From Candidatus Iainarchaeum sp. (GTDB lineage: Archaea; Iainarchaeota; Iainarchaeia; Iainarchaeales; CSSED10-239), in NCBI GenBank assembly GCA_937968065.1, contig CALBUD010000051.1, positions 2,821 to 34,820 on the forward strand: a stretch of DNA of 32,000 bases. Reading direction: 5' to 3'. A program made the translations under genes and the position numbers. Below are positions 1-32,000 of the stretch, piece by piece. The notes under the pieces are model-generated. The model had not been told where the DNA came from. It ran no database searches and worked only from the letters and a program-made list of their open reading frames with translations. How positions within the stretch are numbered: position 1 is the first letter of the stretch; the number at the start of each line of letters is the position of its first letter.

Positions 1-3000
1 TATTTTTCTAAATTATTTTTTAATGTTTTTTCTTCATCAGTTTGAGCATCCATTTCAATATCAAATACTTTAATTTTTCCTAAATCCACATTACTGTAAA
101 AATTTAAGAAATTATAACCTAAAGTATTTTCATCTTTAATATAATCTTCAAACAAAGGAGTCAATCGTTTATCTCCATAACTTTCATTATTAACTATAAG
201 ATTGTATAAATAAAATAAATCTTTATATTTAATAAGTCTGCCTTCTGCATTTCTAATTTTATAATTATCATTTATAGTAGAATCAACTTTATTAAAATTA
301 CTTAATAGTTCTTGAAACTTATCTATATTTATTGGTGAATTTAATTCATTAATTGGGAAAGTTGAAGTTATTTGAGTTGTTCAATGTCCTATTGAATTTC
401 TAAGACTACTTAATTTTAAATTTTTAGCCAAGGGTGAATCTGATTTTTTTAATATTTCAAATATAACATTTTCCATTAATATTTTAAAATTAGCTATTCC
501 ATAATCAGTTTTTAAATCAATTACAAAATCTGTATTAGGAGTAACTACTTGAATATCATCTGGATATAATTCTGGATTTTTTTGAATATCTCCAATAGCT
601 AAATTTTTAGCATTATTTGATTTATAAAATATTACAGATTCAATACCAGATGTTTGTATTAATTTTTTAGCATTAAATCTAATATGATCATTGTCTGTTT
701 GTTTTAATCATTTTGATATAGTAAATTTATCAAAAGTAACTAAAGCTCTACTTAAAATAAGATCATTTATTTTTATACCAAAAGCATTATTTCCAAATCT
801 TCCATTTAATACACTATTATTTAAATCAAGAATTTTTTCAATATTATCTTTAATAATATCTCTTGAAGTTGAGAAAGCAAAATTATATTTAGCAGATACT
901 AAACTTAATGTATTATGAATTGTACTAACTCCAGAAACCATTGCTTTAAAGTGAGGAGAATTTTCTATTACATCAAAAACATTAATTGTATTTTTAAATA
1001 AATTATAATACTCTATTGTTGCTTTTCTATAATCATCATTTGCTTCATCCATATAATATCTAAAATCAAATTGACCTCCAATTAAACTAACAGTTTTAGT
1101 ATCAGGTTTTCCTTCTTTAGTTATATAATTAACTTTTATAGAATTTGCTTTAACTAATACTTCTTTTACATAATTACTTACTTCATTTAAATAAAATTCT
1201 TTTTCTTCTTTAGTTTGTGCATTTTCTGCTAATTGTTTATTTTTATCGTCTTTTAATTTAAGTAAAGAATTTGATTCTATAATTTTTTTAATTAATGTTG
1301 TTGGAACTTTATTAATTTCTATTAATTCATCTCATTTTGCAGGATTTCTTAATAAAACTATTTGTCTATTTAAAACAGAATGTTCTCTAGCATACATACC
1401 AGATTCCAAATTAGATAAGAATCTATTTAACTCATCAACATTAGCAGCAGTTTTTTGATTTACTTTTAATATCTGAGCTAAAAATTTAAATTCTTGAGCA
1501 CCTTCATATATTTCTCTAAATTGTTTTACTTCTTCTTCTTGACCTTCATTTTCTTGTAAATATTTAGTTAATAAAGCATCAACATAAACAGATTTAGATG
1601 ATTTAAAAATATTACCTCTAATATTATTACTTATATATTTTCCTATTGGAGAATTCATATAAAGAGCAACATCTTTAATACCATAACCTAAAGACATCAA
1701 ATATAAATGCATAGATGCTAATTCAACTACCGCATTAATTTTTGACATAACTAACTCTTTAGCGTTATCAGTTGCTGCAGAAATAATACCTGATATTTCT
1801 AAAGCTGCCTGAATTTCAACATCAATTTCAGAAAGTTGTTGTTGTAATTCATCATAACCATAAATATTGAATATAGTATTCATATATTCTTGGCTTACAT
1901 TAGTATTAGCTATTGTATGAATTAATTTTTTATTACCATTAATAGTAAATTCTTTTCTAAATACTTTATTATCATTATAAAAATTTATAGCTTCCTTGTC
2001 TATTAATACATCATTTTTATATAAATGTGTGTATCAATTATTATAATAATTACTTAAAGCCAAGAATACTTTTTGACCATTTGCTCCAATACCTACGTCA
2101 GCTTTACCAACAGAAGCATCTTCTTGTTGTTTAAATGGTGAAATCCAATCTCAATTAGAAAGTAAATCTTCAGTATATTTTAATTGTTCTTTAGCAGCTT
2201 CAGCAGCTTTGTGTATAGAATCTATGCTAATTGGTTCAGAAGCAAATAAGAAATTACTTGGAGTACTAATGATTTCTTTAATTTTAGATACAATAGAATT
2301 TCTAATAGCATTTCGTTTATAAATATATTCTGTACTTGTATTATGTTTATTTATAATATTTATATATAAATCAATAATTTTAGAATTATTAGCATATAAA
2401 TTTTGATTTACAACTAAAGTATTATTAGTTTGTTTATCATCATTATTATTAGATTTTCTTAATACAGATATAAAATCTCTTATAATACTTAAAGGAAACA
2501 TTGAAGATAATTTTTCAGGATCAGTTTCAGTTATATTATTTGATTCAATAAATTGAATAAAATTACTTATTTCTGTATCTACATTATCTATGTTTGAACC
2601 TGAATCAACCGTTATTTCTTTACCGTTAGGTAAAGGAATTCTTTCTAAAATATCTAATTCTTCTTTAGTACTATAATCAAATAAAGGAGTTCCTACTTCA
2701 TAATGACCATTTTTATTAAATCCATATCCCATCATATAAGATTTATCAATATCAAAGTCAGAACCTTGATATCAAATTTGAAATATAGATACATAAGCAT
2801 CATTTGATTCAGTATTAAAATATGCAACATTTTTCATTGTCATGAACGATTGCATAGATTGAGCAGGAATACGAGCCGATATTGTTTCTAAAGATTTTTG
2901 CCAGCTTGCAAATTTTTTATTAGATAATGTTTGTAAAACTGTTTGTATATTTTTAGATAACCAAGAAGAATCTAAAACATCAGAATCTCTTTTTCTATAA

Positions 3001-6000
3001 TTATAAAATTTTGAAAATATTTTAAAAGTTTCTTCATTTATATTTATAGGTTGATTATTTCTATTTATAGTATTAGTAATTAAATCTTTATTATCATTAT
3101 TTAATAAAGGAACTATAGCAGAAATATCTTCATCAAATGATCTAATAAAATTCCATAAAGAATATTGAAGATTTACATTTAATTGTCTAAATTTATTTGT
3201 TTTATTAGTTGCTTCATCTACAACTTTAACTTCTTTACTAATTTTTACATAAATAATATCAACTCCATTTTTATGAACTACTTTTGAATTTTTAGGTTTT
3301 GTATATAAAGTTCCTCCAGTTGAAGAAATTCTTCTTAATTCTGTTTCTCCAGTTTCATCATTTGTTTTAGAAACAAATAATTTAAGATTATCTTGTTCAA
3401 TAGGTAAATCATGTACAAATTTAATATATACATTAGGATTTCCTTCAGATAATACAAATTTTAAATCAGCATTTGTATCATCTTCTTTAAAATTAGATTC
3501 TAATTGTTCAATAAAATATTCAGGTCCAGTAACTTCGTTTATTGATTTACCTTTAATATCAAATGCTGAATATATTTTAGGTAATATTACTTCTGCAGGA
3601 ATATGATTATAATTTTCAACTCTAACAGTATTTAATTCATTATATAATTTTTTTGCATTTTCTCACGGAGTAGATAAATTATCTCCTTGTGGAAAATATA
3701 TATTAAAATCAATAGGTAAATTAGAATTTGTTCTAGGAATCATTATTCTTCCTGAATCTAATAATTGAGTATTACGTTTAGTTCAAGCATTTAATTTTTT
3801 ATCTAATTTATCAAATGATTCGTCTGTACCATTTAAAGGAATTTTAGCTCATTCAGCAAAAGATGTAAGATGTTGTAAATATTTTGGATTAATAAAAGTT
3901 TTATCTTTATCAGCCTTTTTAAAATTTTCTTGAAAAGTATTTAAAACAAATCTTAATTTTACTGAATCTAAATCAAATTTATTATAATAAATTCCATTTA
4001 CTGTAAATGTAGTTTCATCAGGTTTTAAATCTCTCGGAGCATTATATATTTTAACAACTTGATCTGATAAACTATTTACATTTGTTTTAAAATTATAATA
4101 TTTTTCAAGTGTATTTAAAGTAACAGGTTTACCATCAATTAAAATAGTATCTCAAAGATTAACTTCACCTACTGTTATATTATCATTGGGAAAAAATGTT
4201 TCTAAATATTTATCTAATATTTGATTATTTGAAAGAACTTTAACATCAGGAAGACTAGTTCCTCATTTAAAAGCTAATTTTCTTAATTCACTTTGTTTAT
4301 ATATTTTTCCATCTTTCCCTTGATATAATTGAACTATACCGTGAGAAGGATTTATGACAGCACCAAGACCAGGATAATAACGAGTTATAAATTCATTATT
4401 CATTTTTGTAATCATCTCTCTAGTAAAATCTCTAAAGAAGTGTTGATTACTAAACGGTAGTAATTGACCTATTCCAAAAGTTTCAGCTATTGTTTTTGCT
4501 AATGTTGTTCCTTCAGAATTTGCTAAATTATATGCAAATTGTTTAGATAAAACTGTATAAAAATCATTAATTTGTTTTTCAGTTAAATTATCAGAACTAG
4601 AATAATATTTTTTAGAAGATTCTTTTATTATTCTTGCTATATCTTGATATACTTCATTAGCTAAATAAGCAGTTGTAGGATTTTGAGCAAGAGCAGATAT
4701 AATCTGAGTAATTTCTTTTATTTTAGATTCATTTGCTGAGTGATTAGCATCTAACTGAGGTCCAATATAATCATTTTTAAATGTAGTGTAAGTTAATCTT
4801 TCATTACTTTCTCATAATCGAGAAGGATTTAGATTAATTTGTCCAGATTTAAAAGAACTACCATTAGATATAAAATGAATCATTTTATCTTTTAAAATAT
4901 ATTTTCCATCATTATCAACATAAGATGTTACTAAATCATATATTAAATCATTTGATCCTTCAGAAAATTCTAAATCTTCTGTAATAGTATCAGCTCCTCC
5001 AAATGCTTTTCATATATCAAATAAATTTTTTACTTCAGTCTCGACAATTGGTTTAGAAAGAATACCATTAAATTGTTTTGTATCAGGATTATAAGAATTA
5101 CCTAATATAACAATTTTACCCTTAGAAATAGCATAATTATTTATTTTATAATAATTTCCATTTTTATAAAATCCTATAAATGGTAATTCTTTTGAAGTAT
5201 ATTCTAAATCTGAAGGTAAATCAAATGCAGATAACATTTGATCTTGTTTATTTAACATATTAACTTCAGATTTTGAAGAATCTCTAATTACTTCATTTGT
5301 TATTACAAATTCAGCATCCTTTTTAAGAGAACTTCCATAAGGACTTATAAAAGTACCAATTTCCTTTTTAGTACCTTGATAACTTTTACTTGGAAAAGAT
5401 TCTTCAATCATTCTAGAATAAGCATAATTTATTCAAGTTGATCCATCATGAATATCTTGGGTATGAGTTTTTCCAGATAAATTACCTAACTTTGCACTAC
5501 GATCTTGTATAATTGCTCCATTAATTTTATCAGGAACACCTAATTGATAATTCTTAATAGGAATTTCATAAGTAGCTGTAAAAGATACATTACGCTTACT
5601 CATGTTAGGAAGTCTAAAAGACATTTCTTTAAAGTACTCTGTTCAATGAAGTTTATTTTTATCTATATCACCTTTTTTAATATCTTTATCAGATAAAAAT
5701 TTAGAATCAATAAAATTATCTCCCCTAAATTTTAATTTAGATTCTTTATCTTTTGATTTAAAAGGGTGCATATATTCTGGTTTAGTAGTAATATATAAAT
5801 ATTCATGTTTGAATAAATTGTTTACTCATAAACCTCTTTTTAATAAAGGATTTAATAAACCTGTTTTAGATTTAATTAATACTCCTTCTCCTTTAACAAC
5901 AAAATTAGTCTGAAAAGATTTTTTATCAATTCCGAAAGTAGTTAATAAACTATTTAAACTTAAATCTTTTTCTTCCATTTTATCTAAATCACCAGATGAA

Positions 6001-8843
6001 AATAGATATTCACTATTAGAATATTTAATTAATTTGTTTATTAAAGAATTTTCAGACTCTTTTACAAAATGATTAAAATTATCCTTATTTTCAAATATGA
6101 AAAAATTATCAATAATAGGTTGATTTAAACCTAGCCTAATAGATTTTCCATCTTCTGGAGATACATAAATTGAATAATGTAATTCTCCAGAAATATTAAT
6201 AGAATCATCGTTAAGTCGTTTAGTTCTAATATGTTCTAATAAATCATTTAAAGTTTTAAATTCTTTTAAGAAATCATTTATTTTCTTTATATTACTTTTT
6301 ATTATTTTTATATCAGGATTAGCAACATTAACATTGCTAATTTTAACTCCTAATTTACTATATTGATCAAATATATTTCTTACTACATCTCAGTAATAAT
6401 TATATGATTGAGTTCTAACTAATTCTAATAAATTAGTTTGAGTCATTACATTTTTACCACTATTATTACCTATAATATATTCTCCGTTATGTTTAATATT
6501 TTTATCTATTATCTTATTAACAATAGAATTTTTATCTGAATAATTACCAATCATAACATTTATTCCACCTACTTTTGATGTAGGTCTAAAAACATCTAAA
6601 AAGTCATATTCAAAACTTGCAGTAAAACTTTCTAAAGCTGTTCAATTAAAAGCTGTTTTACTTTTATCTTCATTAATAGCTTCTAATTTTGTAGAAGTTC
6701 CTAATAAACCTCCATCTTGTAAAAATAAATTTCTATATTGTTCAGAACCAGTTTGTTCTAATAAATGTCTTTCTAATAATACATTTCCATCATCAAACAT
6801 TAAATTTGCAAGTTTAAATGTTGGAATTTTTTCTCCTGTACTTGTAGTAGTAACCATTATAGCTTTCATTGGCTGATTTTCCAAGAAAATATCTAATATA
6901 TCTTGAATTTTTTGACTTAATTTAGAAATTACTTCTGATTTAGATTTAACTTCAGCCTTTGTTAAGTCAGCAATATTTTCTTCATTTTCTTGAATAGCTT
7001 CTAAAATACCCTTTTGACCTTCTTCTTCTGATTGTCTAATTGAAACTAAAAAGTCTCTAACATACCTAGCAACTTTTTCTTTATTCTCTCCCTCATTAAA
7101 TTTAGGATCTTTTAAAGCTTCCATTAATTTAAATGCTCCTTCTGGTCCTAAATATATACCTAATTTAGCATAAATCATATTAGATAACTTTTGAGGAGTA
7201 TCTGTTTGTTTTTTAATATTTTCAATTTCTTTCTTAATATTCTCAGACTCTTTAGCTGCATTTTCAGATGTAGAAGATACTCCAATTCAAAATTGATTAG
7301 GAAGAGTTGTTCTTTGAGACAAATAAGAATATATTGAATTTTGTAAGTCAACTCTAGTTGCATTATGAGAGTGCATTTCTTGAAGTTCTAACTTACCTGT
7401 ATTTTGATTATATACTGTATAATTTGCTCCGTATGAATTATTTACTACTTGAGATACTATATTTAAAATTGATCTTTTAGAATTTTTTTCTTTTGTTGCA
7501 TTTTTAGTTAAAAAAGAATCCAAAGATCTTAAAACTCCAATTTTATTATTGAAAGTTACTGCATTTCTATTATTATATAAAGAATCTTCAGATACTCAAT
7601 TATCTCCATCTTTAGCTTCAAGTATATTATGAATATACCATTTTAACATTCTTAAAGGATCTTTAGAGAACAATGTTCAATTTTCAAATCCAAATGGGTG
7701 AGTATCTTTAGTATCACCTAATTTAGAAAAATCATCATCTCTTAATTTAATTAATTTATTGAAGTTTAATATTTCAAAGTTTTTTATAAAAGCAGCTAAA
7801 GAATATAAATCTTTTCTATCTAAATATAAACCAGTAAAATCTCCATTATTATCTAATAAAGGAATAGATTCAATAATAGCATCAGATAATTGATCGCGAA
7901 TTTCTTCTACTGATTCTGACATATGTTCTTCAGTTTTCCAATATTCTGTAGACTTTCCTTTAGGAGTTAAAGAATATTTACTAGAACTGCCTCCATAATT
8001 AAAATCATTAAAATATTTTACGTCAATTTTAATAACATTGTTATAATATTTATAAAGAATATTATCAAAATTAACTAATAATATTGCAGCATTATAAGCA
8101 TCTAATTTTAATCTATCATTTATATTAGATATACTTCCTGTTAGATCAGGTATAATTTGATCAAATATATTTACTACAGCATTAACGTTATTTTTTCCTA
8201 ATAATGTTTCTTCTAATATTTTTAAAGTATCTTTATATAAATCATAGTTTTTAAAGTTACCTCTAAAATCATATAAATTTGCTATAAATTTATCTTCTTT
8301 ATAATATTTACTTATGTTATCAATTTTTCCTAATTCTTTTAAATAATCAACAATAGTTTTAAATAATTTATTTTTTAATGACTTAATATTATTATTAACA
8401 TCAAAGTCACCTCTTACATAAGTTTCTATTGGATTTCCTTTTTCATCTTCTTCGGGATTAAATATAACAGCTTCTACAAATTGTTGATTTAATCGTTTTT
8501 CAAAATATTTTTTAGCAACATGATAATCGCTAAATAAATCTACAATTAAAGGTGAATTAAAAATAGATTTTACATTAGATACTTTTTTAGAAATTACTTT
8601 CTTTCTAATTTGAGGATCTGATGCATTAAAATTATAATTTAATCGTTTAAAAACTTTTTCAATTCTATTATAAGAACTTTCAGTAAATTCTTCTTTTATC
8701 TTTTTTAAATTATAATCATTTCCTAAAAGAGAACGCACATATTCTAGTGCGTTCTCTCATGAAGAAAAACTTCCATTTTCTAATTTAGTCTCTAATTTTG
8801 ATACTACTCTTCCCTGTAAATTAGGGCTACAAATATCGCTCAT
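1..8843 (-). CDS. Giant virion-type RNA polymerase-like protein. Partial: the C-terminus runs off the left edge. More than 2947 aa with TGA read as Trp.
   Basis: Track fragments 708..1052, 1332..1883, 2151..2735, 5010..5411, 5433..5624, 6642..7178, 7287..7523 and 7677..8738 share one frame (low coordinate divisible by 3), and each ends in TGA. I read every gap codon and found no in-frame TAA/TAG from 3 to 8843. The start is ATG at 8841-8843 (MSDICSPNLQGRVV...), 9 nt after the upstream stop. There are 22 in-frame TGA. The segment SARIPAQSMQSF...WYQGSDFDIDKSYMMG lies at 2745-2873. It resembles the RAPTLHRxxxQ...NADFDGD segment of RNAP beta-prime and the DFDID metal site that I recall (from memory) for the phi14:2 gp66 / crAss-like virion RNAP. 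Confidence 0.7.
2745..2873 (-). other. Putative catalytic double-psi beta-barrel segment of the RNAP-like giant (R-I-P-A-Q-S ... D-F-D-I-D, about residues 1991-2033)
   Basis: Direct translation gives gtc-aaa-atc-aat-atc at 2745-2759 = D F D I D on the minus strand, and acg-aat-agg-agc-ttg-aga at 2856-2873 = R I P A Q S. The spacing and flanking aromatic residues mimic the beta-prime NADFDGD loop context. Confidence 0.55.
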
Positions 8844-8852
8844 TTTTTATTT

Positions 8853-11800
8853 TTATTGACAGTTTATAAATAAATTATCAAGTGAATCAGAATCAGAATG
8901 ATCTATTCCTAAAGTTTTAAAAATATAACTAGTTAAATCATATTGAACAGTATGATGATCTGAATTTTTAGAAGTTAAATTATAATAATGGTCTAATAGT
9001 AATGAAGATTCTTTCGGAAATTCATTTAATATTTCATATAATGATTTACCATTAAATACTTTATTTCTTCATTTACTGATTAATTGATTAAATATTAATT
9101 TATCTTCTTCACTTAATTCATCGAAATTTTGATGAATAGTTTTAAGATTATTTAATAATGCTTCTACTGGTTTGCTCGAATTTTTATTAACAATTTCAGT
9201 TATTTCATCAAAAACTATTTCAGGAGTTAATTCTGTTTTTTCAGTATTTAAACTTCTTAATTTTTGTTCTAAGTCAGAAATATAAATATTCATTCCTTCT
9301 TCAAAAGATGTACTTTCAGAAACACCTGGTAATGTTGATAGATTAGATATATCAGTTAATCCTTGCAAAGTATATTCTGTATTCTTTTTATGTTCTAATA
9401 TATCTTTAATTAAAGTTGCAACTTTAATTTTTAAGTTTAATCTTTCTTTTGTATCACCTGGTTCATCTTTAACTATAGCTTCACCACTATATTTTATTGA
9501 TTTTAATTTAGTAATAAGTTTAGTTATTTCTGGGTCTATTTTGTCTTTTTTGTCTTTTTTCTTAGCAATGATTACATTATCGGATAAATCTAAATTCAAA
9601 TAAGGACCTTCAGGAGTTAATGTAATAAAAGTATTTGATAAATTACTATCAACATCTTTAATTTTAAAACCTTCTCCATCTTTAGTTATGGGAATATTAT
9701 AATAAAATTTATCATTAAATTCATTAGATCAGAATTTAAGCATTTGATCAATAATTTTTATTTGACTTTTATAAACTTGAATAGTTTCGTCAAAATAATT
9801 ACCAACTTCAGCTTCATAAAGACCAAGTGTATGATTCATTTGATCATAAAATGAAAATATATTCCAGAATTTAGTTGACCAATATTTCTTATCGGTATAA
9901 CCTTGAATTTTTCTTACTAATTTAGTTTTTAAATTTTTTTCAGTAAGAGTTGTTTTTGATTTTTCTGCAATAGTTAATTCATTTTCAATTAATAAATATA
10001 CTTCTCTTAATCTAGAATGTTGTCCTTTTTCTTTATGAGTCATATTCTCAATTAAATCCTTAGAAACAATTTCATTTATTAATGATAATAATTCATTATT
10101 TTTTATATTCTTTCCAGCTAAATCCTTATTAGATTCTTGTATAAGTTGTTTGCCAGTTTTGAAAAATTCTCTAAATAACTGAGGTTGTTTTACAGCCATT
10201 CTAACTAACATATCTAATACTTGATTAGCATTAAATAATGTTTCTGTAACTGGAAATACTTCATCTTGTCGTTTAGATAAAATTAATTGTCTTGCTGAAA
10301 TAGGAGTTTTTAATCCTAAAGGATTTCTTATAGTTTCTTGTATTTGTTTTATTGTTTTAGTATTAGACTTCAACAATACATATTGAACGTGAGATTTATC
10401 CTTTATAAATGTAACTGCTACATAAGGTTTACCTTTATATCCAGAATTAGTTCCTTTTCCATAAAACAATTCTTTTAATTTTTCTTCAGATATTGGTTCA
10501 CCAAAGGTTATTTCAGCATATTTTTGTTTAAATTTTTCAAAAGTATTAGGAAATATTTTAATTGCTGGCTTTTTAACATATTCCGTTCCATCAAGAAATA
10601 ATAAACCTTTAAATTTAGATAATTCTTCTAAAGAATATTTTACAGGATTATCATCACTTTTAACAAGTCTAGTAGAAGTTTTTACATTGATTTTAGTTGG
10701 ATCAATTTCAACTTCATCGTCAATAGAATTAATAAAATTTTCAAATTTATCTCTAGATTCTTTGTCTTTTTCAAATCAAGTATTTACTGTATTAAGTAAT
10801 GGAAATGTTGCTAATTGTACATAATATTCTTTTGAACCATTACTAACTTTTAACATTAAGTTATAATAATCATCTCCATCTTCTAATGGTGAAGTTTTAT
10901 CTAACTTTTTATCAAAAGCTGTATTATATGCTTTATAATATGTAGATTTTTTTACTACTAATGTACTTTGTAATTTACTAGTATCTCCAAATATAGCTTT
11001 TAATACTGTATTTAATACTGGAGGTTGAAATTTATTTTTTCCAGTTGATTTAGAAGTTTTCCAAATATCATATTTTAATCTAACAAATTCTTCAACATAA
11101 TTATCAAAATCGGCTTCATTAAATCCGTCTGTTGGTTGAATATCATATAAGAAAGATAATCCATAAGAAAAACTACTATTTGGATTCTTTTCAACAAATA
11201 CTTTTCCACCTTTCCTGGTAATATTTATATCTAAATCATTATAAAAAGTATGAAGTCTATATTTAAAAGATTCTTTTTCAAATTCAGGATCAAATTTTTC
11301 TTGTGTTAAAGTTTCTCCTGTATATTCAGAATCTCCATCATCTTCATCAGTTAAATCTAATTCTGATTTAGAAAATTTAAAGAAATCATATTTAATATCA
11401 AAATTTGGATTTAATATTTCTTTTAGTTTATCAATTCTTTTCTTTTTATCTTCATCAATTACATTTTTCTGTAATGGAGTTACAAATACTGTAGAACTTT
11501 GTTGTTCATTTTTCAATCGAATTATGCTAGTATCAGGATTTGTAATTTCACCTTCATTTAATATTATAGTAGCTTGTTTAGACCTTGTACTATAAGTATA
11601 TAATCTTCTTAAAGAATCTAATACGTGTCTACCTTTTATAAATGAATTAGGTAATATAAAATAATCTACTTCAGATCCTTGAATATTACCTTCAGTAAAT
11701 AACTTAATATTAGCTTTAGTAATACCAAAAGCTTCAAACTGTTTTTCTAATTCTGGATCTAATTCATTAATATTATTAGATAATACACCAATTTTAGTTT

Positions 11801-17663: not shown

Positions 17664-17664
17664 G

Positions 17665-22500: not shown

Positions 22501-23771
22501 TTGTATTGTAATTCAATTTCTTTTTTTGTTTGAGGATCTTGTAAAATTAAAGTTTTTGTATAATTAAATCCTTTTTCTCCTCTTTCAGGAACTCCAAATA
22601 TATTTCAACCTTCAAAACCAGTTACTTTACCTTGAATTGGTCTAAACCTTTCTCCTTCAAATTGAAATTTGAATTTAGATGGATCATAACCTTCAACTCC
22701 TTCTTGAAATAATGTAGGAATACCTTCTATATGACTAAAATAAGTACCATAACCAGGTGCATCAGGATCAATATATGTAGATTCAAATAATCCTGTTTTA
22801 CCAATTACTATTTGTCTACCTGATTCATCTTCTAAAACTAATCCTTTTTTAGATATATCTTCTTGTAATCAAGGAGAATCAATGTTTTTTAATCTATTAT
22901 CTGCAGAAATTTTAGTAAACCCTTTTTCAACAGCACCAGCAATTACTGAATCAGCATATCCTTGCTGTCTAAGATTCTTAATAAATCCTTCAAGTTCATT
23001 TTGTTTAGCTTGTTGACTTTCTTGTTTTATCTGTTCTTCAGATTTAGGAAGTAATAATCCTCTAGGATTTCATCCTAATTTCTGACTTTCAGAAACAAAA
23101 GTATCTCAATCATTATTTTCTATTGCACTTAAAATAATTTCTTTATTTTCAACAGGTAAATATTCTCATCCTTCTTTTGGAGTAGTACCATATTCAGAAA
23201 CATATTTTCTAGCAATATTCATTACTCTTTTCTTTTTAGCTGACTCATCTTCACCAAAAGTTGCTAAATCTTGTGCTCATAAATTCTCTGCTCCTTCTTG
23301 TCCACCATATATTGATTTTTGTATATATAATCCAAGATCTCCAATTTTCTTTTTACCTAAATATCCTGCAGCTTTCTTTTGAGAATCACTACCTTGAGTA
23401 GATTTTTTATTTTGTAAATATTCATTAGTTCAATTAGCTATTAATGTATTGACGTTAGATTTAGGTGTAACTTGTCCAAATATATTTGTTTTTATTCCTT
23501 CTTCACTCCCTGTTCAATCAATACCTTGTAATTCAATTGGAAGTTTACTTGCATCTATTTTATATTTTTGTGTAATTGGATCATATTGATATGCTTGTTC
23601 AAGTGATCCAGATTTAATTAGTTTTCCTCAATTGGAAGCAGCTTCTCTTGCTGGTTGTTCTGCTTTTGCTGTAAGAATACCTTCTCCAAATTTCTTACTT
23701 ATGAAGTCTTCATAATCTTCATATAAATTTGGCGAAGTACCTCCAGATTGATATTTTTTAACAACTGACAT
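19512..23771 (-). CDS. 1419-aa tape-measure/ejection-like internal virion protein. It has Gly/Ala-rich hydrophobic segments, a Gln/Ala-rich coiled-coil C-terminal part and multiple x-x-GG motifs.
   Basis: ATG at 23769-23771 (MSVVKKYQSGGTSPNLYEDY...). The track shows no ORF across 21858-23771 because TGA codons are dense there. I read all of it in frame and found no TAA/TAG. It joins fragments 20652..21827, 19827..20618 and 19512..19733. There are 12 in-frame TGA. The stop is TAA at 19512-19514. The functional label rests on composition and architecture only. Confidence 0.75.
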
Positions 23772-23800
23772 ATTATATGCTGTATTAATTGTTTTTAATT

Positions 23801-23836
23801 AAAAAAATAAGGGAAGACAGATTCTGTCTGCTCCCC
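23801..23836 (-). terminator. Rho-independent terminator downstream of the 88-aa Ala/Gly-rich gene
   Basis: The minus strand reads GGGA[GC]AGACAG-AAT-CTGTCT-TCCC followed by TTATTTTTTT. That is a 10-bp GC-containing stem with a 2-nt bulge, a 3-nt loop and a T-run. It begins 10 nt after the TAA at 23846-23848 and lies about 30 nt before the next ATG (23771). It is the only GC-rich hairpin plus T-tract I found in the window. Confidence 0.7.
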
Positions 23837-23845
23837 TTATTCAAA

Positions 23846-24112
23846 TTACTTCCTGCTTACTTTTACAAGTTTTCCGCCTTTTCTGGCATATACAGGTGCT
23901 TCTTGAGGAGCTGCTTCCATTCCTGCGCCACCACCTTCTAACATAGCCATAATAGCTTGAGCAAGCATTGCAGCGGCTTCTGGGCCTAACTGTTGTACGA
24001 TCTGTTGTGCCATCTGCATTAATTGTTCTTCTGGTCCTGGACCACCAGCACCTGCGCCCGGTGCTGCTTCTGGAGCCATTGCTCCACCTTCTTGAAATCT
24101 TTTTACTTTCAT
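23846..24112 (-). CDS. 88-aa Ala/Gly/Pro/Met/Gln-rich acidic protein with basic GG-containing termini
   Basis: The track ORF is intact (no TGA), with a TAA stop at 23846-23848 and ATG at 24110-24112, 8 nt after the upstream TAG. The sequence is MKVKRFQEGG-AMAPEAAPGAGAGGPGPEEQLMQMAQQIVQQLGPEAAAMLAQAIMAMLEGGGAGMEAAPQEAPVYARKGG-KLVKVSRK. It is visibly far more GC-rich than its surroundings. Confidence 0.75.
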   Translation of the reverse strand: MKVKRFQEGGAMAPEAAPGAGAGGPGPEEQLMQMAQQIVQQLGPEAAAMLAQAIMAMLEGGGAGMEAAPQEAPVYARKGGKLVKVSRK

Positions 24113-24120
24113 TTTTAAAA

Positions 24121-24696
24121 CTAGTTTTTTGATACATATTCAGGCTCTGAATCATTTTGAGCCTTTAAAAATTTAAACACTCTCTTCCCTAATGCTTTAT
24201 AGTCACTGTCTTTTTGAGTTACAGCAGCTTTCTTAGCAAACTTAATTAAAGTCTTAGTATTAGGTCTTGAAAAAATTCTTTCTCCGCCTTCCAATTCCAT
24301 TTGCGGAGTTCCATCGTCATTTAACACTAACATTTTATCTTGTTTTACTTTTGTATTTGGAGAAAATTCTAATTCATCACCTGGTTTTACTCCTGAATTA
24401 ACATTTAATTCTAAAACAAAAGCTACGTCTTGTTCTGTAAACATTTCTTCTGAATTAGGTTCTCCTTGATAAACTGCTTTAATATTGAGATCAGTATCTA
24501 TAAAAATAATATCTAAAGGAATTAAAGTATCTTTCATTCACATAGAAACTTCTTCTGTATCTGTAAAAGAAAATAACATACCTTCATCTTGTGGTAAATT
24601 TTCTACTCCTTGAAGTCCCTTTTCTCTTTGTTCATCAGTTTCAGCAATACTTACTTTATATGTATTATCACCGATTCTTATTTTTATTTTATCCAT
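24121..24696 (-). CDS. DUF192 (PF02643/COG1430-like) domain protein with a C-terminal extension, 191 aa
   Basis: The ATG at 24694-24696 is preceded by an in-frame TAA at 24700-24702. The stop is TAG at 24121-24123. The translation is MDKIKIRIGDNTYKVSIAETDEQREKGLQGVENLPQDEGMLFSFTDTEEVSM[W]MKDTLIPLDIIFIDTDLNIKAVYQGEP...AFVLELNVNSGVKPGDELEF. This matches the family pattern as I remember it: GLM...GMLF.F......fWMKNT.iPLDiiFid...yVLEl.aG....GD. The bracketed W is the TGA at 24538-24540. Confidence 0.8.
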
Positions 24697-24835
24697 TTTT
24701 TATAATCTATGAAAGAAAGTTTACCTTGATTTTTAAGTACATTTTTTAAATGAATTGCTTCATTTCAATCATTTGTTTCTAAATGAGTTATATATTTTTT
24801 CTTCTCTATATTATAAGTAATAACTCAATATATCA
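24697..24835 (-). promoter_or_regulatory. Largest non-coding gap in the window (139 nt); candidate regulatory region upstream of the DUF192 gene
   Basis: No ORF longer than 11 codons exists in any minus frame, even with TGA read as Trp. It contains an 8-bp inverted repeat (TGAGTTAT...ATAACTCA) and a 7-bp hairpin, AAATGAA-GCAA-TTCATTT. I could find no convincing sigma70 or Bacteroidota-type promoter consensus. Confidence 0.3.
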
Positions 24836-25102
24836 TTATTTAATAATATTTAAAATTAAATCATTCATAGAAAATAATTTTCCTCCATCTTTATGTTTTC
24901 ACTTCCTTGCATTATCTGCAAAAGTAGCTCTTTTTCTTATTGCTGGATTAGGACTATTTTTTCCTTTAGAAATACATTCTTGTGTAACTTTTCCACCACA
25001 ATATTCTGTAAATTTTCCTCTATTTTCTGGTTTAATATATATCTTTGATTTCCCACCTTTTTTATAAGATGATATTAATTCGGGTATAAAATTTAAATTC
25101 AT
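24836..25102 (-). CDS. 88-aa basic protein of unknown function
   Basis: ATG at 25100-25102, 1 nt after the upstream TAA. Track fragment 24899..25102 ends in TGA, and reading on gives ...ADNARK[W]KHKDGGKLFSMNDLILNIIK* with TAA at 24836-24838. The sequence is MNLNFIPELISSYKKGGKSKIYIKPENRGKFTEYCGGKVTQECISKGKNSPNPAIRKRATFADNARKW... Confidence 0.7.
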
Positions 25103-25103
25103 A

Positions 25104-26351
25104 TTATTCTACTTGTTCTAATAACCCTGTGTTATCTTGCGTATTTTCTAATATTTCGTATACAAGTATTTTACCTGCTTCAATAGCTGCATCTTCGTCT
25201 CCTCTTTCAAATTTTTTAAGTAACTGTTCTATTTGATTAGTTAATTTTTTATGAAAGATAATTTCATTTACTTCTATTTCAGCATGTTGTTTTACTTCTC
25301 CACCTTCTTCAAATGTTACAACGGGAATCCCTTTATTAGTAACATGTTTTGCTATTTCTTCTGGTAAATTATGTTTTCTTGCATGTAATACTCCACTTGG
25401 TATAACATTTACAGGTTCTTTTGAAATAACTTCAACTACTCCACCTTTTTGTAATTTTAATAGATTGTGATTAGCTTTAGCTTTTATATTCTTTAAATCT
25501 AATAATTTAACACCAGATTTTGCAGCAAGAATATTAGTTGTTTGTCCACCTAAAAGTTGTTGTCTATTTTTATTAAGTATATCTTGAGTAGATGTCATAG
25601 AACCTAAAATATTTTGTTTGTTTCTATATCCTACGTCTGATGCTCTTGCTAATATACTTTGATAATTTTTAACATTTTGGTTTATTCCTTCTGGTCGTCT
25701 TGATTTTTTATTAAATAATCTACCTAATCCAGATATTTTTTTACCAGCTAAATCAGCTACATAATCTCCAGTGTATCCTGAACCAACATTAGTTGCTTGA
25801 GTTATATCCTGTTTATCTGCTGTTTTTCCTGTTAATTGGTTTATAGCATGTGCTGCGGTTAAACCTCATCCTATTGGATTAGATGCACCTAATAATAAAG
25901 GTGCTGCTATACTTGCATATTTTAATGCTTTATCTCCAGTATTTTTAATATCTGCTTCTCTTCCAACACCAGTAAAACTTAATGCTGTAGAAGCTAATCC
26001 TGTTATTCCTCCAATTCCACCAAGTGCTTTTAATGCTCCTGCTCCTGCAGCACCTAATTTACTTGCTTGTGCTCCAATTACTGTCGAACCTCTATTAGTT
26101 ACTGCTCCAAATGCATCTGGAACTGCTTTACTAAACACTGAAGGTGAAGCACTTTTAAAAGTATTAAATGCTTTTACACCCTCTTTTACTCCTTTAGCAG
26201 CCTGATAAAGTTGGGGAGCTGTAGCAACAGCCATCCCCAACCAATCAGTTTTTTTGTTACCAGATGAAATAACAGGAGAGGAATATAAATAAGGAGATTG
26301 AAACATACTTTGATTAAACCAGTCAATTGACTGTAATGTATTTTCATCCAT
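25104..26351 (-). CDS. 415-aa protein with an N-terminal Gly/Ala-rich hydrophobic half and a C-terminal LQKGG/EEGGE-containing half. Putative internal/ejection protein.
   Basis: Fragments 25866..26351 and 25104..25598 are in one frame and joined through the TGA at 25866. The 25599-25865 gap was read with no TAA/TAG. The ATG at 26349-26351 lies 3 nt after the upstream TAA. The stop is TAA at 25104-25106. Confidence 0.75.
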
Positions 26352-26354
26352 AGT

Positions 26355-29300
26355 TTATGCGTAACTTATTGTAAATAATGTTCTAATTGCGTTTATAATA
26401 GCGTATTTTTGACCATTATATTTTACTCTTATTTTAATATACTTGTCTCTCAATTTCATTTCGGAATTATTAGTATATACTAAATTTGACCCCGATAAAT
26501 ATCCATATTTGAATGTTATAGGTTGAATTTGAATATCCCATGAATCCTCTACATATTGCATGTTTCCTCTTAATCTTCCAACTTGTTTAATATCCAATCC
26601 TTTTTGATATATAGTTACTAATTTTTCTTTAGTTTTGTTATGTTCTCTAATTGTTAAATCTCTTACAACATTTGGAACATCTGGTCAATTCGGATTAAAT
26701 ACATTAATATCTCTACACCAAATAAAAGGTAATTTGTTTACAGATGGATTTTGTAACAAGTAATTTCTATAATTATTTGATAATTGAGCTTTTATTGTTT
26801 GAGCATTTCCTATACTTTCAGGAGGACTTAGTGAATAAATAGTATCTTTTAAATAATTTCACTCAAATCCTTCACCTACAATTTCATATTCAAGTGAATC
26901 TGGTTCAGCTCAATTAGAAATAATTTTCAAATTATCAAATATCTTTTGAATACCTTGTACTTCCGTAACAACAAATTCATATTCAAAAGGATGTTGTTCA
27001 TCATACCAAAAGGTTGGTTTAATAATTCCAGTTTCTTCTAGTGTTCCAGCGAATCCGTGCTTATATAGTATTGAACCTCTATTCGTATGAATTTTTTCAT
27101 TTGCAAATGTATAAAAAATATTATTAATATTTTCCGAAAATTCAGGAAATCATGTATATTGTGTTACTCATTTATTTTGAAGTTCATTTCAACATAAATG
27201 TCACTTTTTATTTCCATATATAAATACAAATAATACATCATGCTTAAATGCGTTGAAGTGACTCTTTATTACATATTGACTTACTGTTTTATCTCTATCT
27301 GCAATTCCTAAATTTATATTATCATTTAAAAACTTCTGAATTTTAAGATCTGATATCAATTCAAAAGTATCACCATTAGTTCTTCATATTTTTTTAGCAA
27401 CAGTATCTAAACCATATACAAATCTTGGAGTTTTTATAATACTTTCTGATCATAAAGAACCAAAAGTATCAGATAAAACTTTAGGATTTTTAGGTAATAC
27501 TGTATCAGTATTTATATAAACATTTTCTCCAGAAGCATTAGTCATCATCGCTCTCTCATTTACAGGAATCATTAATACTCCATGTTCCATTACAGCAATT
27601 AATGAACCAAATCATTCTTCTAATTTTACTAATGATCCATATTCCGAAGAATAATCTTGATAATTCTGAGATTTAAATACTCTATTTTCATTAACAAATG
27701 ATGCCTCTTGTAAAATATCTGAATAATATATTCTTGTACTAAAATTAGTTTTTATAAAAGGAACATCTGGAATTTCAAAATAAAATTTATTTCCAAGTGA
27801 ATAACTTATTCCTGAATTAATAACATTTGATTCAGGTAATTTATTCTCAGGTTTAGCGGATTGTAAAGGATAAAAACTTCTTTTCATTTTATGCAATGCT
27901 TCTTCTGCAGGTCTAGAGAAATCTACATCTCTCATTGCAAGATTAACATTAGAACATATTTTAAAAGTTATTCAGTGTCCAATAGGTACTGCATTTACAT
28001 CAGCTCTATTTATTTTAGTTGCACCAAAAGTACCATTAGCTTCAGAAAATTTCTTAAAGTCTTTTGAATCAGGCATTGTAAGTTTAGCAAGTGATATATC
28101 TTTACCATCTACCTCTGCTGTTTTTCAAGTAAATAAATCTAATACTTTTTTATATGATGCTGTTTCTGTTCCTCCTGTAATAATTCCATCTGTTGAATCT
28201 ACAATTACATTACCTCCAGAACCTCCTTGCATTATTTTTGTTGTTTCGACTCTATAATTTTTATACCAAGTATAAGGATCAACAATTTGATTATTAGTTG
28301 GTAATTCAGGATCAGTAAAATTTCACATTACTCTATGAGTATATGTATTTATATAACAGTCACCTCTATAAATTAGTTTAGTTTTATCATTTGATAAATC
28401 ATTTCAAGTCATTCTATCACTTACAGGTAAGAATGGAGAAGAATCGTTATATCTAACTCTAAAATAATCTTTTCACCTATTTGGGAAATCATAATTTTTT
28501 TGAAAAATATTATAATACTTACCAAATTCTAAATTATTATAAGTACTTGCTATATAAGTATTAAATTCACCCCTTATTTTAGTTACTCCTTCTGATCAGG
28601 TTGCTTCACTAATATTTACATCAGTTCTTAAATCTTCTAAATCCCCATTTACTGGATCTACATGTTTTCAAGAAATTTCAGGAGTGCCTGCTCTTGAACA
28701 GAACTTACTATCATTGTTATAAATCAATTCTATTCCTGGTTCAATTAAAGATAAATTAGAAAAGAAAGTACTATCGTCAAGTTCATCTCTTTTTATAAGA
28801 TTTCCTAAAGTAAATATCTTTCTATCATTCATGTTATCTGTAAATGATCCAACTAGTGGATTATGATTAAATAACTTAAGAGTAAATTCAGATGAATTAA
28901 AGAAATTATTAAATACATACGGTCTGATAGAAGCTTCTGGACAGATTAAAGCATTATTATTTATATCTTCTACTTTGAAAAAACTTCTACCTAATTTAGG
29001 TTTTGAATTTGAATCTTTAGTTAAAAAAGATTCAGTAAAATATTCAGATGAAGTAGTTATTCCTTCTGTATAAGTTCCTTTAATTAAGGGAGTAAATGCT
29101 TTTTGTGAAGTAGCGATTGCTAAACCTTGAGTTAATAATGTAGGTATTCTTTTTTGTCTTACTATAAAAAATCCTTTCGTTAAATCTTTTAAACCCGGGA
29201 TTCCTTTCTTTTCATTTCCAGATAAAACACCTTTTCGCTGTCCATCTAATACATCTGTATATTCATTAAATTTAAATTTAATACCAATAGGTTTAATAGG

Positions 29301-30617
29301 TTTACTTCCATCAAATATTCTATCATTATATTTAATTTTAAATACACCTTTAGCATTTTCAGGATTTGTAACTTTTAATGATTTTTCTAAAATAAAATCT
29401 TCTCCAAAACTTATTTCCTCATCAATAAGAAAACTATTAAACATTCCTATATTTGTATTATCTTCACTTAATTCTTTTATTCCTCTAATATTAAATACTG
29501 GAGATAATGTAAAATCATTTAATATATAAACTATACCAAATCTATAAATTTCTTCATTTCAATATCCTAATTTATAATAAATGTTTTTAGTATTATAATA
29601 TTCATATCCATCATCGTATGAATAATTCTCTTCATATCTATCATTTAAGAATCCTATGTTCTGTCTTTCAGGATTATCATATGTAATTAGTTCTGGTGTA
29701 ACATGTAAACTATATTGTTCTAATGTTTTAAACAAATCATAATTTTTAGTTACATTTCCAGCAAAAGTCATATTTTGACAATTTGTATTTGTCTCAACAG
29801 AATCAAAATTTGCAAATCTAATATTTATTTCTGATAAATCTATTTCTTCATGTTCCTCATATCCTGTTATAGATATCTCAGTAGATGTTCCATTAATTCT
29901 AAATTTATCTGCAATCCTATAACTCTTTAAAGTTTCAGTTTTATCGTCTCCAGAAGTCCTTGTATAATAAATATTTATATAATTATAGGCTAAATCTAAA
30001 TCATTTAATCTAAACTTAATAACCTTATCACTATTTTCATCTAATTGACCTCCTCTGATAGACGATGGATTATTAATCGCCCCAATATGACATACTACTT
30101 TTCCAGATTCTGAAATAAAATCAGATTCATTTCCATCAGCATCTGCTAATTTGAAGTAAAAATGATAACTACCTACAGACATTCTTCCACCATCAAATAC
30201 TCCTAAGAAATCTAATTTAACAACAGATCTAACTGTTTTAATTAATCCAGACTCTATTACAAAATTATCTTCAGTATATATGTTTGTATCAATATTCCCT
30301 TTTCTATCAGCAATTTTATAATGATTTGAATCAACTAAATAAAATCTAGAATTTACAATCTTTAAAGGATTTGTATGATCATTAACAATTAAATTGATAG
30401 AACCATCATATGATTCTTCTGAATCTAAAAAGATAGGATTATTGATATTTATCTTAGCTTTACTTGCTTGTAAAGTAAGTCTCTCTAAATCTATTTTTTC
30501 ATCGTCTCTAACTATTTTTAAGTTTTGAAACGGCGAATATTTATATATGAGTTCCCCATCTTCGGGGAACGCATATATTTTATTATTTATTACTGCATTA
30601 ATGTGTGGTAAACTCAT
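26355..30617 (-). CDS. 1420-aa large virion structural protein (tail/baseplate-type by size and position; function not identified)
   Basis: Fragments 29559..30617, 28668..29444, 27612..27935 and 26355..26597 share one frame and end in TGA, except for the final TAA at 26355-26357. All gaps were read with no TAA/TAG. There are 18 in-frame TGA. The ATG at 30615-30617 (MSLPHINAVINNKIYAF...) is preceded by tandem TAA TAA. Confidence 0.75.
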
Positions 30618-30626
30618 AATAATTTA

Positions 30627-32000
30627 TTATTCTCATAATCCTCCATCGTAATTAGGTTCTACATATATTCTTACAAATATATTTCTATCTACTACTGTGA
30701 CAGGAAAAGGTTGTGTAACTTCTTGAGCTGGTGTAGGATCATCTATTATTATATATGTTTTTAAAGAATCATATGCTGCACCATTTATATATGATATGAG
30801 CATTGTAGGATCAATATAATATGTTCCTGGAACTACTGGTCCATGTGTAAATAATGTTGTCTGTGGAAAATTCATAGGTATAATATATTCTGTACTATCT
30901 ACGAAAAATCTTCCACCTAATCCGTTACCATATCCTTGTTGAATAGGTACATAAACAACTTCTACAGTAATACTATTTCCACCAGGAGTATTAGTAATCA
31001 TTGATGCTGCTCGATACATATATCTAAATATTAAATTCACATTTGGTGGTCCAAAAGGTGTACTATTACAATCTGTTCCACAATCAAACATTCATCCAGG
31101 AACTACTCTAAAGTTTAAGTTATTTGATATATTATTATAAGATTCAGTTAAGAATTGTTGTCCTGATCCAAATAAAGTAAATGTATCATTTAATGTAAAA
31201 TTATTATTTTTGACTAATCTATGATTACTTTGGTAATTACAATAATCTTCAAATATAAAAGTATTTTTTGCTCTAGTCATAACCATATCAACAGATAATG
31301 GTGACTCTCCTGCTTTATAATATCTATAAGTTAATGAATCAACAACAGGTAGATTAGTTAAAGTACCATCTCAATAAAGATAGTGTTTAAATGGGAAACT
31401 TGGATCATTTCATACCATATAACTTGGTACAATATTACATATAAATGCATAATTTCTAGTTAAGTTTTGAGTTGGAAAAAATGCATCAGTAATTGGTTCA
31501 AATCCAGATCTATTTACACTAATTTCAGTATATACATTTGGTTGTATTTGTATTTGTATATTATTAAATCCTAATCCTTCTTGTTGTAATATTGTAGAAT
31601 TATATAATTTAGAATTTGCTCCTTGTTTTATTGTCATAAACATCATAGAACATAAATCTCAATCTAAATTGAAATTTAACGTTAAAACTGTATAATTACA
31701 TTCTAAACTTTGAGCATATACTTTATAAGTATTTTTAAATAAATTAACAAGTTCAATATAATCTTGATAATCTTGTTCTAGAGTAATAATTATAGGATAT
31801 CCATCTGTTCCTATTTGATAAGTTGCTAAAACAACATCGTCTACTTCTGGAGTTTCTCCATCTAATATAAATATATGTCTATATTGAGATTCATTAAATA
31901 AATAATCAATATATACTCCATTAATATTTTTTATAGATACAATTTTACTTGTTTTAAATAATGTATTATTGTTACATTCGTGATCTTCTTCTACAAAATT
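30627..32000 (-). CDS. Large structural protein. Partial: the N-terminus runs off the right edge, and 457 aa are visible.
   Basis: Fragments 31410..31646, 31092..31286 and 30633..31091 are in one frame and joined through TGA codons. The frame stays open up to position 32000. The gene ends ...EPNYDGGL[W]E* with TAA at 30627-30629 and a second TAA at 30624-30626. There are 5 in-frame TGA. Confidence 0.7.

Follow-up and report, generated by a model that had tools for sequence, protein, structure and literature searches.

The window, as the whole 32,000-nucleotide stretch of DNA analysed here is called, raises the question of which genetic code its genes obey, and why. Translated with table 11, it is a mosaic of about 35 fragments, the longest ORF measuring 504 aa. 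Taken as sense, TGA gives minus-strand ORFs of 2948, 2941, 1429, 1423, 631, 458 and 417 aa, a gain not matched in the window when TAG or TAA is set as sense instead. With ATG starts chosen, the fragments merge, as the first-pass annotation had claimed, into ten minus-strand genes which tile the window and carry 82 in-frame TGA codons. About 80 had been announced there, 82 by hand count, and the recount agrees gene by gene. The GC content is 26%. TGG is used beside TGA, as had also been stated: the genes contain 21 TGG codons, and TGA makes up 80% of the Trp codons.

The coding frames contain no internal TAA and no internal TAG. In the remaining two minus-strand frames TAA occurs 524 and 912 times, and TAG 391 and 214 times (9 of the 10 genes, the small gene gS being omitted). 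TAA and TAG are the sole terminators, as originally proposed, but the number of stops, earlier given as ten (nine TAA and one TAG), has to be lowered to nine (eight TAA and one TAG), because gene g9 extends past the window start. Stops had been placed 1–10 nt before the next ATG; 7 of the 9 lie within 10 nt of it or overlap it, but two longer intergenic gaps measure 74 nt (23772–23845) and 139 nt (24697–24835).

The fragments obtained with table 11 resemble those of a decaying locus, and TGA could be viewed as a true stop. The genes would in that case be pseudogenes or products of misassembly, or the ribosome would pass each TGA by programmed readthrough or by inserting selenocysteine. The 82 in-frame TGA, set against no TAA or TAG in frame and hundreds out of frame, reduce the probability of this to practically nil. 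Frame and synteny are maintained across 32 kb, and the pattern is common to hundreds of independent assemblies. TGA sites are conserved in relatives, and swap with TGG: in the TGA-using relative L004 window TGA codons face TGA at 28 of 44 sites and TGG at 10 of 44, and window TGG codons face TGA at 5 of 14. No Rfam family, SECIS included, was found above threshold in the window. The true-stop reading is ruled out by the frame-specific lack of TAA and TAG.

The residue specified by TGA was sought in nine relatives in which TGA is not sense, namely MT835470, which uses the standard code, and eight TAG-sense loci. At 27 window TGA sites, 38% of the aligned cells hold TGG-encoded Trp, which has a background frequency of 1.1%. 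Phe and Tyr come next (10% each), and the list of the seven commonest residues does not include Gly. In control columns of the same relatives, W makes up 59% at TGG, G 55% at GGN and Y 47% at TAY. In pairwise alignments, TGG is found opposite 9 of 35 window TGA sites in L001, and 9 of 31 in L002. Gene g4 (24121–24696), which encodes a DUF192 protein of 191 aa (Pfam PF02643, E = 2e-24) and is the only one to end with TAG, has a sole TGA at 24538–24540, codon 53. This codon had been reported to fall on the conserved W of the family, and indeed, when the query residue was replaced by X before alignment, W was found opposite it in both PDB 3PJY and 3M7A. Phages of Gracilibacteria or Absconditabacteria read TGA as glycine (code 25), which likewise makes TGA sense and lengthens the ORFs to the same extent. 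Yet GGN columns are 55% Gly in the very relatives in which Gly is missing from the top seven at TGA sites, pairwise counts at these sites give 0–3 Gly per relative against 9 Trp, and both solved DUF192 homologs have Trp at the corresponding site. Code 25 retains hardly any probability, and is ruled out by the alignment-column counts. Three independent lines of comparison agree on TGA as Trp, namely the relatives lacking TGA sense, the TGA/TGG interchange within the TGA-using clade, and the conserved Trp of DUF192. Judged from these alignments, the window genes read UGA as tryptophan, leaving UAA and UAG as the only terminators. TGA-as-Trp recoding in the window is real.

The genes, all on the minus strand, are described from the window end backwards; unless stated otherwise they stop at TAA. 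Gene g1 (30627–32000; 5 TGA, no TGG) is represented by its C-terminal 457 aa, the N-terminus lying beyond the window end. Its position, upstream of the muzzle gene, matches that of a 680–1017-aa gene in the loci L004, L006 and L103. Gene g2 (26355–30617; 18 TGA, 4 TGG) encodes a crAss-like muzzle protein of 1420 aa, which matches PF25731 crAss_MUZ (E = 1.2e-23, passing the curated cut-off). One entry of a public protein collection (P0001) is 100% identical to its translation with TGA as W, and 2756 homologs were found. Gene g3 (25104–26351; 1 TGA, 2 TGG) encodes a 415-aa protein, 62% identical at the C-terminus to its MT835470 homolog. It is followed by gS (24836–25102), which encodes an 88-aa basic protein and has one TGA (24899–24901), by g4, and by g5' (23846–24112), which encodes an 88-aa Ala/Gly-rich protein, has no Trp codons, and hence no TGA. 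A terminator-like hairpin follows g5' at 23829–23815, and an identical g5' protein was found beside DUF192 on one 905-bp Logan contig.

Larger proteins are encoded by the remaining genes. The 1419-aa product of g6 (19512–23771; 12 TGA, 1 TGG) features Gly/Ala-rich and coiled-coil segments, matches neither Pfam nor PHROG families, and is likely a cargo or tail protein. The 615-aa product of g7 (17665–19512; 5 TGA, 1 TGG) is likely a virion or cargo protein, and has syntenic homologs in L001, L002 and L004–L011. Gene g8 (8853–17663; 17 TGA, 7 TGG) encodes a giant protein, 2936 aa long, in which a helicase-like segment contains a P-loop (GDAGTGKT). The protein is 27% identical to the product of MT835470 49838–58738; its homologs in relatives give faint or weak matches to AAA_22, AAA_30 and AAA_19, and a PHROG scan of its full length was empty. 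Gene g9 (3–8843; 22 TGA, 6 TGG) encodes more than 2946 aa, the C-terminus lying beyond the window start, and is homologous to two adjacent genes of MT835470. The protein carries a DFDIDK motif, and has the size and the syntenic position expected for a giant virion RNA polymerase. Over its full length neither Pfam nor PDB sequences gave a match, nor did PHROG over residues 1004–2947, the part scanned; it is regarded as a putative virion RNA polymerase from motif and synteny. The g9 homologs retrieved start just past the DxDxD motif.

The muzzle match of g2, together with Crass_capsid (PF23898) and weak CrAss_Ring_1 (PF24228) matches located upstream of the muzzle, outside the window, in the syntenic relatives L004, L009, L011 and L319, supports the view that the window comes from the late arm, the one with the virion genes, of a crAss-like phage not yet in culture. 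The window muzzle is 31% identical to that of S22M_St_77, a Zeta crAss-like phage (Table 1 in PMC12386605), and at this level of identity the window clade appears distantly related to the Zeta group. Among the annotated phage records searched no match from the window clade was detected, and only MT835470 and MT835492 match. A megablast of 15 kb against these records, exact 68-mer searches of IMG/VR and GTDB genome contigs, and look-ups of identical proteins with the table-11 fragments and with P0001, gave no match; a full-text literature search for the accession MT835470 found no paper. Relatives of the window feature mixed codes, homing endonucleases, inteins, and genomes of up to 172 kb; CAYRBL010000001.1 and ERZ27248700 k141_1552526 measure 163 and 172 kb.

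Codes are distributed among relatives according to distance. TGA is sense in 18 IMG/VR contigs, in which the muzzle is 51–58% identical (16 contigs) or 40% identical (two contigs) to that of the window. The other ten IMG/VR contigs, with muzzles 34–49% identical, are TAG-sense, as is MT835492, and the code of MT835470 is the standard one. TGA recoding is common to all of the closer relatives; farther away the code is TAG-sense or standard.

In-frame TGA might mark the whole phage genome, or its late genes only. The two arms were compared in six clade relatives (L210, L229, L231, L233, L235 and L212; muzzle 56–58% identical to that of the window), in which the early arm was reached by a metagenome scan and two walking steps. 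The TGA:TGG ratio is 181:85 in the late arm and 20:153 in the early arm (Fisher p = 1e-33). In a tally that took in 106 early genes, TGA made up a fraction of 0.13 there and of 0.71 in late genes. Other pairs of codons ending in A or G are used alike in the two arms, the A-ending fraction for Lys, Glu, Gln, Leu and Arg being 0.80–0.87 in the early and 0.83–0.93 in the late arm. The early arm is nearly TGA-free for about 20 kb more, and includes, as an example, an 848-aa ribonucleotide reductase gene with no TGA and 15 TGG. A few early-arm genes carry 2–4 TGA. The first gene across the junction of the arms carries TGA in L229 and L235, and the gene found at that position in L212 has a lysozyme domain. 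Searches of IMG/VR with DNA polymerase A and the last late gene led to another TGA-recoded clade and to MT835470-like phages (g9 C-terminus at most 32% identical), and a search for the early arm with PNKP gave distant matches only.

The link to late-gene recoding suggested in the first-pass annotation is borne out in the relatives, as in-frame TGA nearly vanishes across the late/early boundary and early and replication genes avoid it; for the phage of the window, whose contig measures only about 34.8 kb, arm specificity is extrapolated from these relatives. The remark that structural, cargo and RNAP genes are recoded alike fits the published pattern, since all lie in the late arm, and the RNAP label is putative. 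The contrast between the arms, at equal usage of the other codon pairs, argues for a standard-code host and for recoding specific to late genes.

The window most probably derives (probability about 0.85) from the late arm of a Zeta-related crAss-like phage which would read UGA as Trp in a standard-code host, and make late translation dependent on suppression. That the host would read TGA as a stop follows from the early arm of the clade relatives, which is almost TGA-free and uses TGG. The muzzle, the cargo-like proteins and the giant putative virion RNA polymerase would be made only once UGA is suppressed during infection, and recoding would place the translation of late genes under a switch controlled by the phage. 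Suppression would most likely be due to a phage-encoded, Trp-charged tRNA whose anticodon is UCA, of the type known from published TGA-recoded phages. Given an AT-rich genome, TGA would then drift toward the frequency of other A-ending codons.

Several features would fit a host which itself uses genetic code 4, such as a member of Mycoplasmatota, in which TGA would be Trp genome-wide and no switch would be needed: the very low GC (26%), the share of TGA among Trp codons (80%), near the 90–95% A-ending bias of other codon pairs, the presence of TGA in every window gene containing Trp, the lack of a detected suppressor tRNA, and one related contig placed in a bin labelled Anaeroplasmataceae. Such a host would leave without reason the avoidance of TGA in the early arm (fraction at most 0.13 vs 0.71 in the late arm, other pairs being equal). 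Moreover, sister lineages are TAG-sense or standard, and bin labels are scattered, including Bacteroides, Lachnospiraceae, Ignavibacteriaceae and Methanobacteriaceae. A code-4 host is accordingly held to be unlikely. The MAG labels of related contigs were discarded as evidence on the host, as they are mutually inconsistent, and spread over unrelated taxa they carry no host signal.

Suppression by a phage tRNA in a standard-code host remains the preferred reading, although neither ARAGORN nor Rfam detected a tRNA in the window, in which no other Rfam family was found, and neither returned a tRNA from the roughly 75 kb examined in clade relatives, whose genomes measure 95–172 kb. These 75 kb comprise the late arm and some 30 kb of the early arm. 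A tRNA(tca) is present in L086, which belongs to a different TGA-recoded clade. The lack of tRNAs in the window and in the 75 kb sampled, compared with the 6–26 of published Zeta phages, leaves a small chance that the clade may reassign UGA to Trp without a tRNA gene of its own. Host RF2 could be disabled or sequestered, for example, and UGA be read by the host tRNA-Trp(CCA); alternatively, the phage could modify a host tRNA.

TGA recoding is well documented in crAss-like phages, so the window is a further example of it, not a new phenomenon, and reveals no new mechanism. It adds to the crAss-like lineages alternating TGA, TAG and standard codes a low-GC and apparently large clade, whose members provide a clean example of a code change at the boundary of the late and early arms. 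There are consequences for annotation, as table 11 replaces the 10 genes of the window with fragments and misannotates many relatives; one NCBI MAG contig of the lineage carries such a fragmented annotation. Binning has placed related contigs in MAGs of bacteria and archaea that bear unrelated names.

Late-gene-specific recoding has been described in three studies (PMC7886860; bioRxiv 10.1101/2021.08.26.457843; PMC12386605). As in the window, the phages of PMC7886860 (2021) use in-frame TGA for Trp, for the most part in late genes. Their code flips among TGA, TAG and standard between phages that are phylogenetically close, and all three states recur here, in the window clade, in TAG-sense relatives including MT835492, and in MT835470. 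The suppressor tRNA of those phages is sometimes undetectable. The window clade differs from them in a lower GC (21–30%), in the lack of tRNAs in the parts sampled, and in being unmatched in the annotated phage records searched, MT835470 and MT835492 excepted. In the Zeta crAss-like phage Lera and its relatives opal suppression affects muzzle, ring, RNA polymerase, helicase, lysin and holin genes (PMC12386605, 2025), and homing endonucleases and inteins interrupt genes, a trait shared with the relatives of the window. Lera, in contrast, has 26 tRNAs including tRNA-Sup-TCA, none having so far been found in the window clade, and TGA is contained in 18% of its ORFs, compared with 9 of the 10 window genes. 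Borges et al. (bioRxiv 10.1101/2021.08.26.457843), whose model concerns the recoding of late and lysis genes in gut phages, detected a suppressor tRNA in only about 35% of TGA-recoded genomes. No 'code-change module' of RF1, TrpRS or tRNA was identified here; in both sets structural and lysis modules are recoded and the replication module is compatible with the standard code. Phages of Mycoplasma and Spiroplasma, which infect code-4 hosts, share with the window an AT-rich genome and TGA as Trp; they use TGA genome-wide because their hosts do so, whereas the relatives of the window avoid it in early genes.

All plausible genes of the window, which has a G+C content of 26%, reside on the minus strand. 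Under table 11 the longest ORF measures 504 aa. Gene re-calling with TGA as sense, proposed as a check in the first-pass annotation, lifts this value to 2948 aa, and minus-strand ORFs of 2948, 2941, 1429, 1423, 631, 458 and 417 aa tile the window; no comparable gain in ORF length was obtained in the window by making TAG or TAA sense instead. Once ATG starts are chosen, ten genes are defined. These carry 22, 17, 5, 12, 0, 1, 1, 1, 18 and 5 in-frame TGA codons, for a total of 82, exactly as counted earlier by hand. TGG is used 21 times, and TGA makes up 80% of the Trp codons. Internal TAA or TAG codons are absent from the coding frame of all ten genes, against 524 and 912 TAA and 391 and 214 TAG in the two other frames of the same strand (tallied in 9 of the 10 genes). 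Since the absence of TAA and TAG is specific to the coding frame, chance, pseudogenisation and assembly error are excluded.

Ten stops (nine TAA and one TAG), each with an ATG 1–10 nt downstream, had been described. TAA and TAG are indeed the sole terminators, but only nine (8 TAA, 1 TAG) fall in the window, because g9, the gene nearest to the window start, runs past it. Two of the nine junctions are gapped, by 74 and 139 nt; the others are tight. The 74-nt gap follows g5', a small Ala/Gly-rich gene, and hosts a terminator-like hairpin (23815–23829, minus strand; AGACAGAATCTGTCT) followed by a T-rich tail. The 139-nt gap (24697–24835) is AT-rich, and its promoter-like matches are weak, at chance level. 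Within the same co-directional block, G+C content steps from 22–24% at 1–14000 (g9 and the C-terminal half of g8) to ~30% at 15000–27000 (N-terminal g8 through g3).

The product of g2, translated with TGA as Trp, is already present in a public protein collection (P0001, 100% identical). Database proteins were left out as evidence for this reason, and codons were compared on the DNA of relatives, the code of each being determined in this analysis. Nine comparison loci, none reading TGA as sense, were used, among them the phage records MT835470 and MT835492 and six of eight further TAG-sense IMG/VR relatives. Of the window TGA sites, 27 are covered by three or more of the nine; there Trp occupies 38% of the cells, against a background of 1.1%, followed by Phe and Tyr (10% each). 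Gly does not appear among the seven most frequent residues, which excludes code 25 (TGA = Gly). Control columns gave 59% Trp for TGG, 55% Gly for GGN, 47% Tyr for TAY and 40% Phe for TTY. In TGA-using relatives, TGA and TGG are swapped both ways: in one of them, L004, window TGA codons face TGA in 28 of 44 cases and TGG in 10 of 44, and window TGG codons face TGA in 5 of 14. The TGA of the DUF192 gene (g4) had been placed on the conserved W of the family motif. With this residue masked as X, Trp is found there in both solved structures, 3PJY and 3M7A, within a W-M-K/R-N-T motif followed by P-L-D. Within the limits of sequence comparison, TGA is established as a Trp codon.

The g2 product corresponds to the crAss-like muzzle protein (Pfam PF25731, E = 1.2e-23). 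In syntenic relatives the muzzle gene is preceded by the crAss capsid and a ring-protein family, and followed by DUF192, a ~1400-aa protein, a ~620-aa protein and two giant proteins. A P-loop segment is found in g8. No Pfam or PDB sequence match was obtained for g9, nor any PHROG match for its residues 1004–2947, and the gene is therefore viewed as a putative RNA polymerase only. Relatives split g9 in two immediately after a DxDxD-like motif (DFDIDK, ~2745–2762 in the window, where the gene is unbroken). The insert is a LAGLIDADG homing endonuclease in the related locus L210 (9228–9926), another small ORF in MT835470 (42006–42707). The split resembles the disrupted RNA polymerase genes of the Zeta group (Yutin et al., PMC7886860). 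Short K/Q-x-GG motifs (MKVKRFQEGG, KKYQSGG, RKLQGGG, YKKGGKS, LQKGGVV, RKKGGIL, YKEGGVL, RAKGGSL) recur, N-terminally or internally, in proteins whose genes separate the muzzle gene from the two giant genes, at 24083–24112 (g5' N-terminus), 23739–23771 (g6), 19477–19512 (g7) and ~25050–25070 (gS), as within g3 and g6. They may serve to mark cargo proteins for processing or packaging.

As the source contig measures only ~34.8 kb, late and early arms were compared in relatives. In MT835470 two further late genes lie past g9, and the early arm then meets them in a convergent junction. Six relatives reach this junction (L210, L212, L229, L231, L233, L235), and L231, L233 and L235 share contigs with muzzle proteins 56–58% identical to that of the window. 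The avoidance of in-frame TGA by early genes, suggested as a test, holds in these clade relatives: TGA:TGG is 181:85 in late and 20:153 in early-arm genes (Fisher p = 1e-33), and ~20 kb more of early arm, reached in two walking steps, are still nearly TGA-free. One ribonucleotide reductase of the early arm (848 aa), for instance, has 15 TGG and no TGA. Strand or mutational bias was controlled for with other codon pairs: the fraction of codons ending in A is 0.83–0.93 late and 0.80–0.87 early for Lys, Glu, Gln, Leu(TTR) and Arg(AGR), vs 0.71 late and 0.13 early for Trp.

A few early-arm genes hold 2–4 in-frame TGA (L229 11487–12230, L235 11464–12174, L231 14053–14784, L266 2695–3837), and recoding is therefore not strictly tied to one strand. 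In L229 and L235 TGA occurs in the first gene past the junction, and the gene at the same position in L212 has a lysozyme domain, in agreement with published recoded lysis genes (bioRxiv 10.1101/2021.08.26.457843). The major capsid gene is nearly TGA-free despite the recoded late arm, with TGA/TGG of 0/7, 0/7, 0/8, 1/6 and 2/5 in relatives (L004 150–1580; L103 1024–2454; L111 965–2383; L011 488–1918; L112 591–2018). A few kb farther downstream, ring-like, tail and muzzle genes abound in TGA (6/0, 5/0, 11/0, 20/3). The phage seems to make its most abundant virion protein without relying on suppression.

UGA is read as Trp in late genes, and early genes of clade relatives avoid it. The host would take UGA as a stop, and suppression would be set up during infection, the agent probably being the usual one, a phage tRNA(UCA). 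Neither the window nor ~75 kb sampled from clade relatives, whose genomes measure 95–172 kb, yielded any tRNA; incomplete sampling is at present the most economical explanation. Suppressor tRNAs are detected in only ~35% of TGA-recoded genomes (bioRxiv 10.1101/2021.08.26.457843), and in Zeta phages a tRNA block resides near the genome start (PMC12386605). In a different TGA-recoded crAss-like clade, found via DNA polymerase A, locus L086 encodes a 78-nt tRNA(tca) (1266–1343, anticodon UCA, labelled SeC by ARAGORN). The DNA polymerase A gene of that clade (L056, 10001–12109) has 8 TGA and 3 TGG; its neighbours are TGA-free.

Among 50,697 annotated phage records, tblastn with the muzzle protein identified only MT835470, MT835492 and a few Flavobacterium phages (weak, 18% of length), and the capsid protein matched only the first two, both unannotated human-faecal contigs. 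Classified phage records show no detectable relative of the clade to which the window belongs. S22M_St_77, classed as a Zeta crAss-like phage (PMC12386605), is a more distant relative (muzzle 31% identical). Phage contigs of the lineage reside in public MAGs named Saccharimonadaceae, Bacteroides, Lachnospiraceae, Ignavibacteriaceae, Muribaculaceae, Alistipes, Bacillota, Methanobacteriaceae and Anaeroplasmataceae (L212; L322–L331). The Saccharimonadaceae record (L212, GCA_053580305.1, JBMDUZ010000001.1) is annotated with table 11, so that its late genes are chopped into many short ORFs. The anaerobic ribonucleotide reductase measures 1062 aa in MT835492 (38265–41453) vs 688 aa in MT835470; intein/LAGLIDADG-like motifs lie in the additional segment.

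The standard code applies to the whole of MT835470; MT835492 reads TAG as sense, in the late arm only. The late block is TGA-sense in 18 IMG/VR contigs (muzzle 51–58% identical to that of the window, two at 40%), as in all closer contigs retrieved from ENA, Logan and JGI (55–71%); the other ten IMG/VR contigs (34–49%) are TAG-sense. This alternation corresponds to the short-range code switching known for crAss-like phages (PMC7886860). The TGA-sense observation was correct, and its reading as late-gene recoding is supported by early-arm TGA avoidance in relatives. The window is a further example of known phage recoding, and its novelty is low. Recoding was extended to many gut phage clades together with a timing model for late and lysis genes (bioRxiv 10.1101/2021.08.26.457843), and in 2025 it was described gene by gene in one Zeta phage, where it covers the muzzle, ring and RNA polymerase genes as well as those for lysis (PMC12386605).
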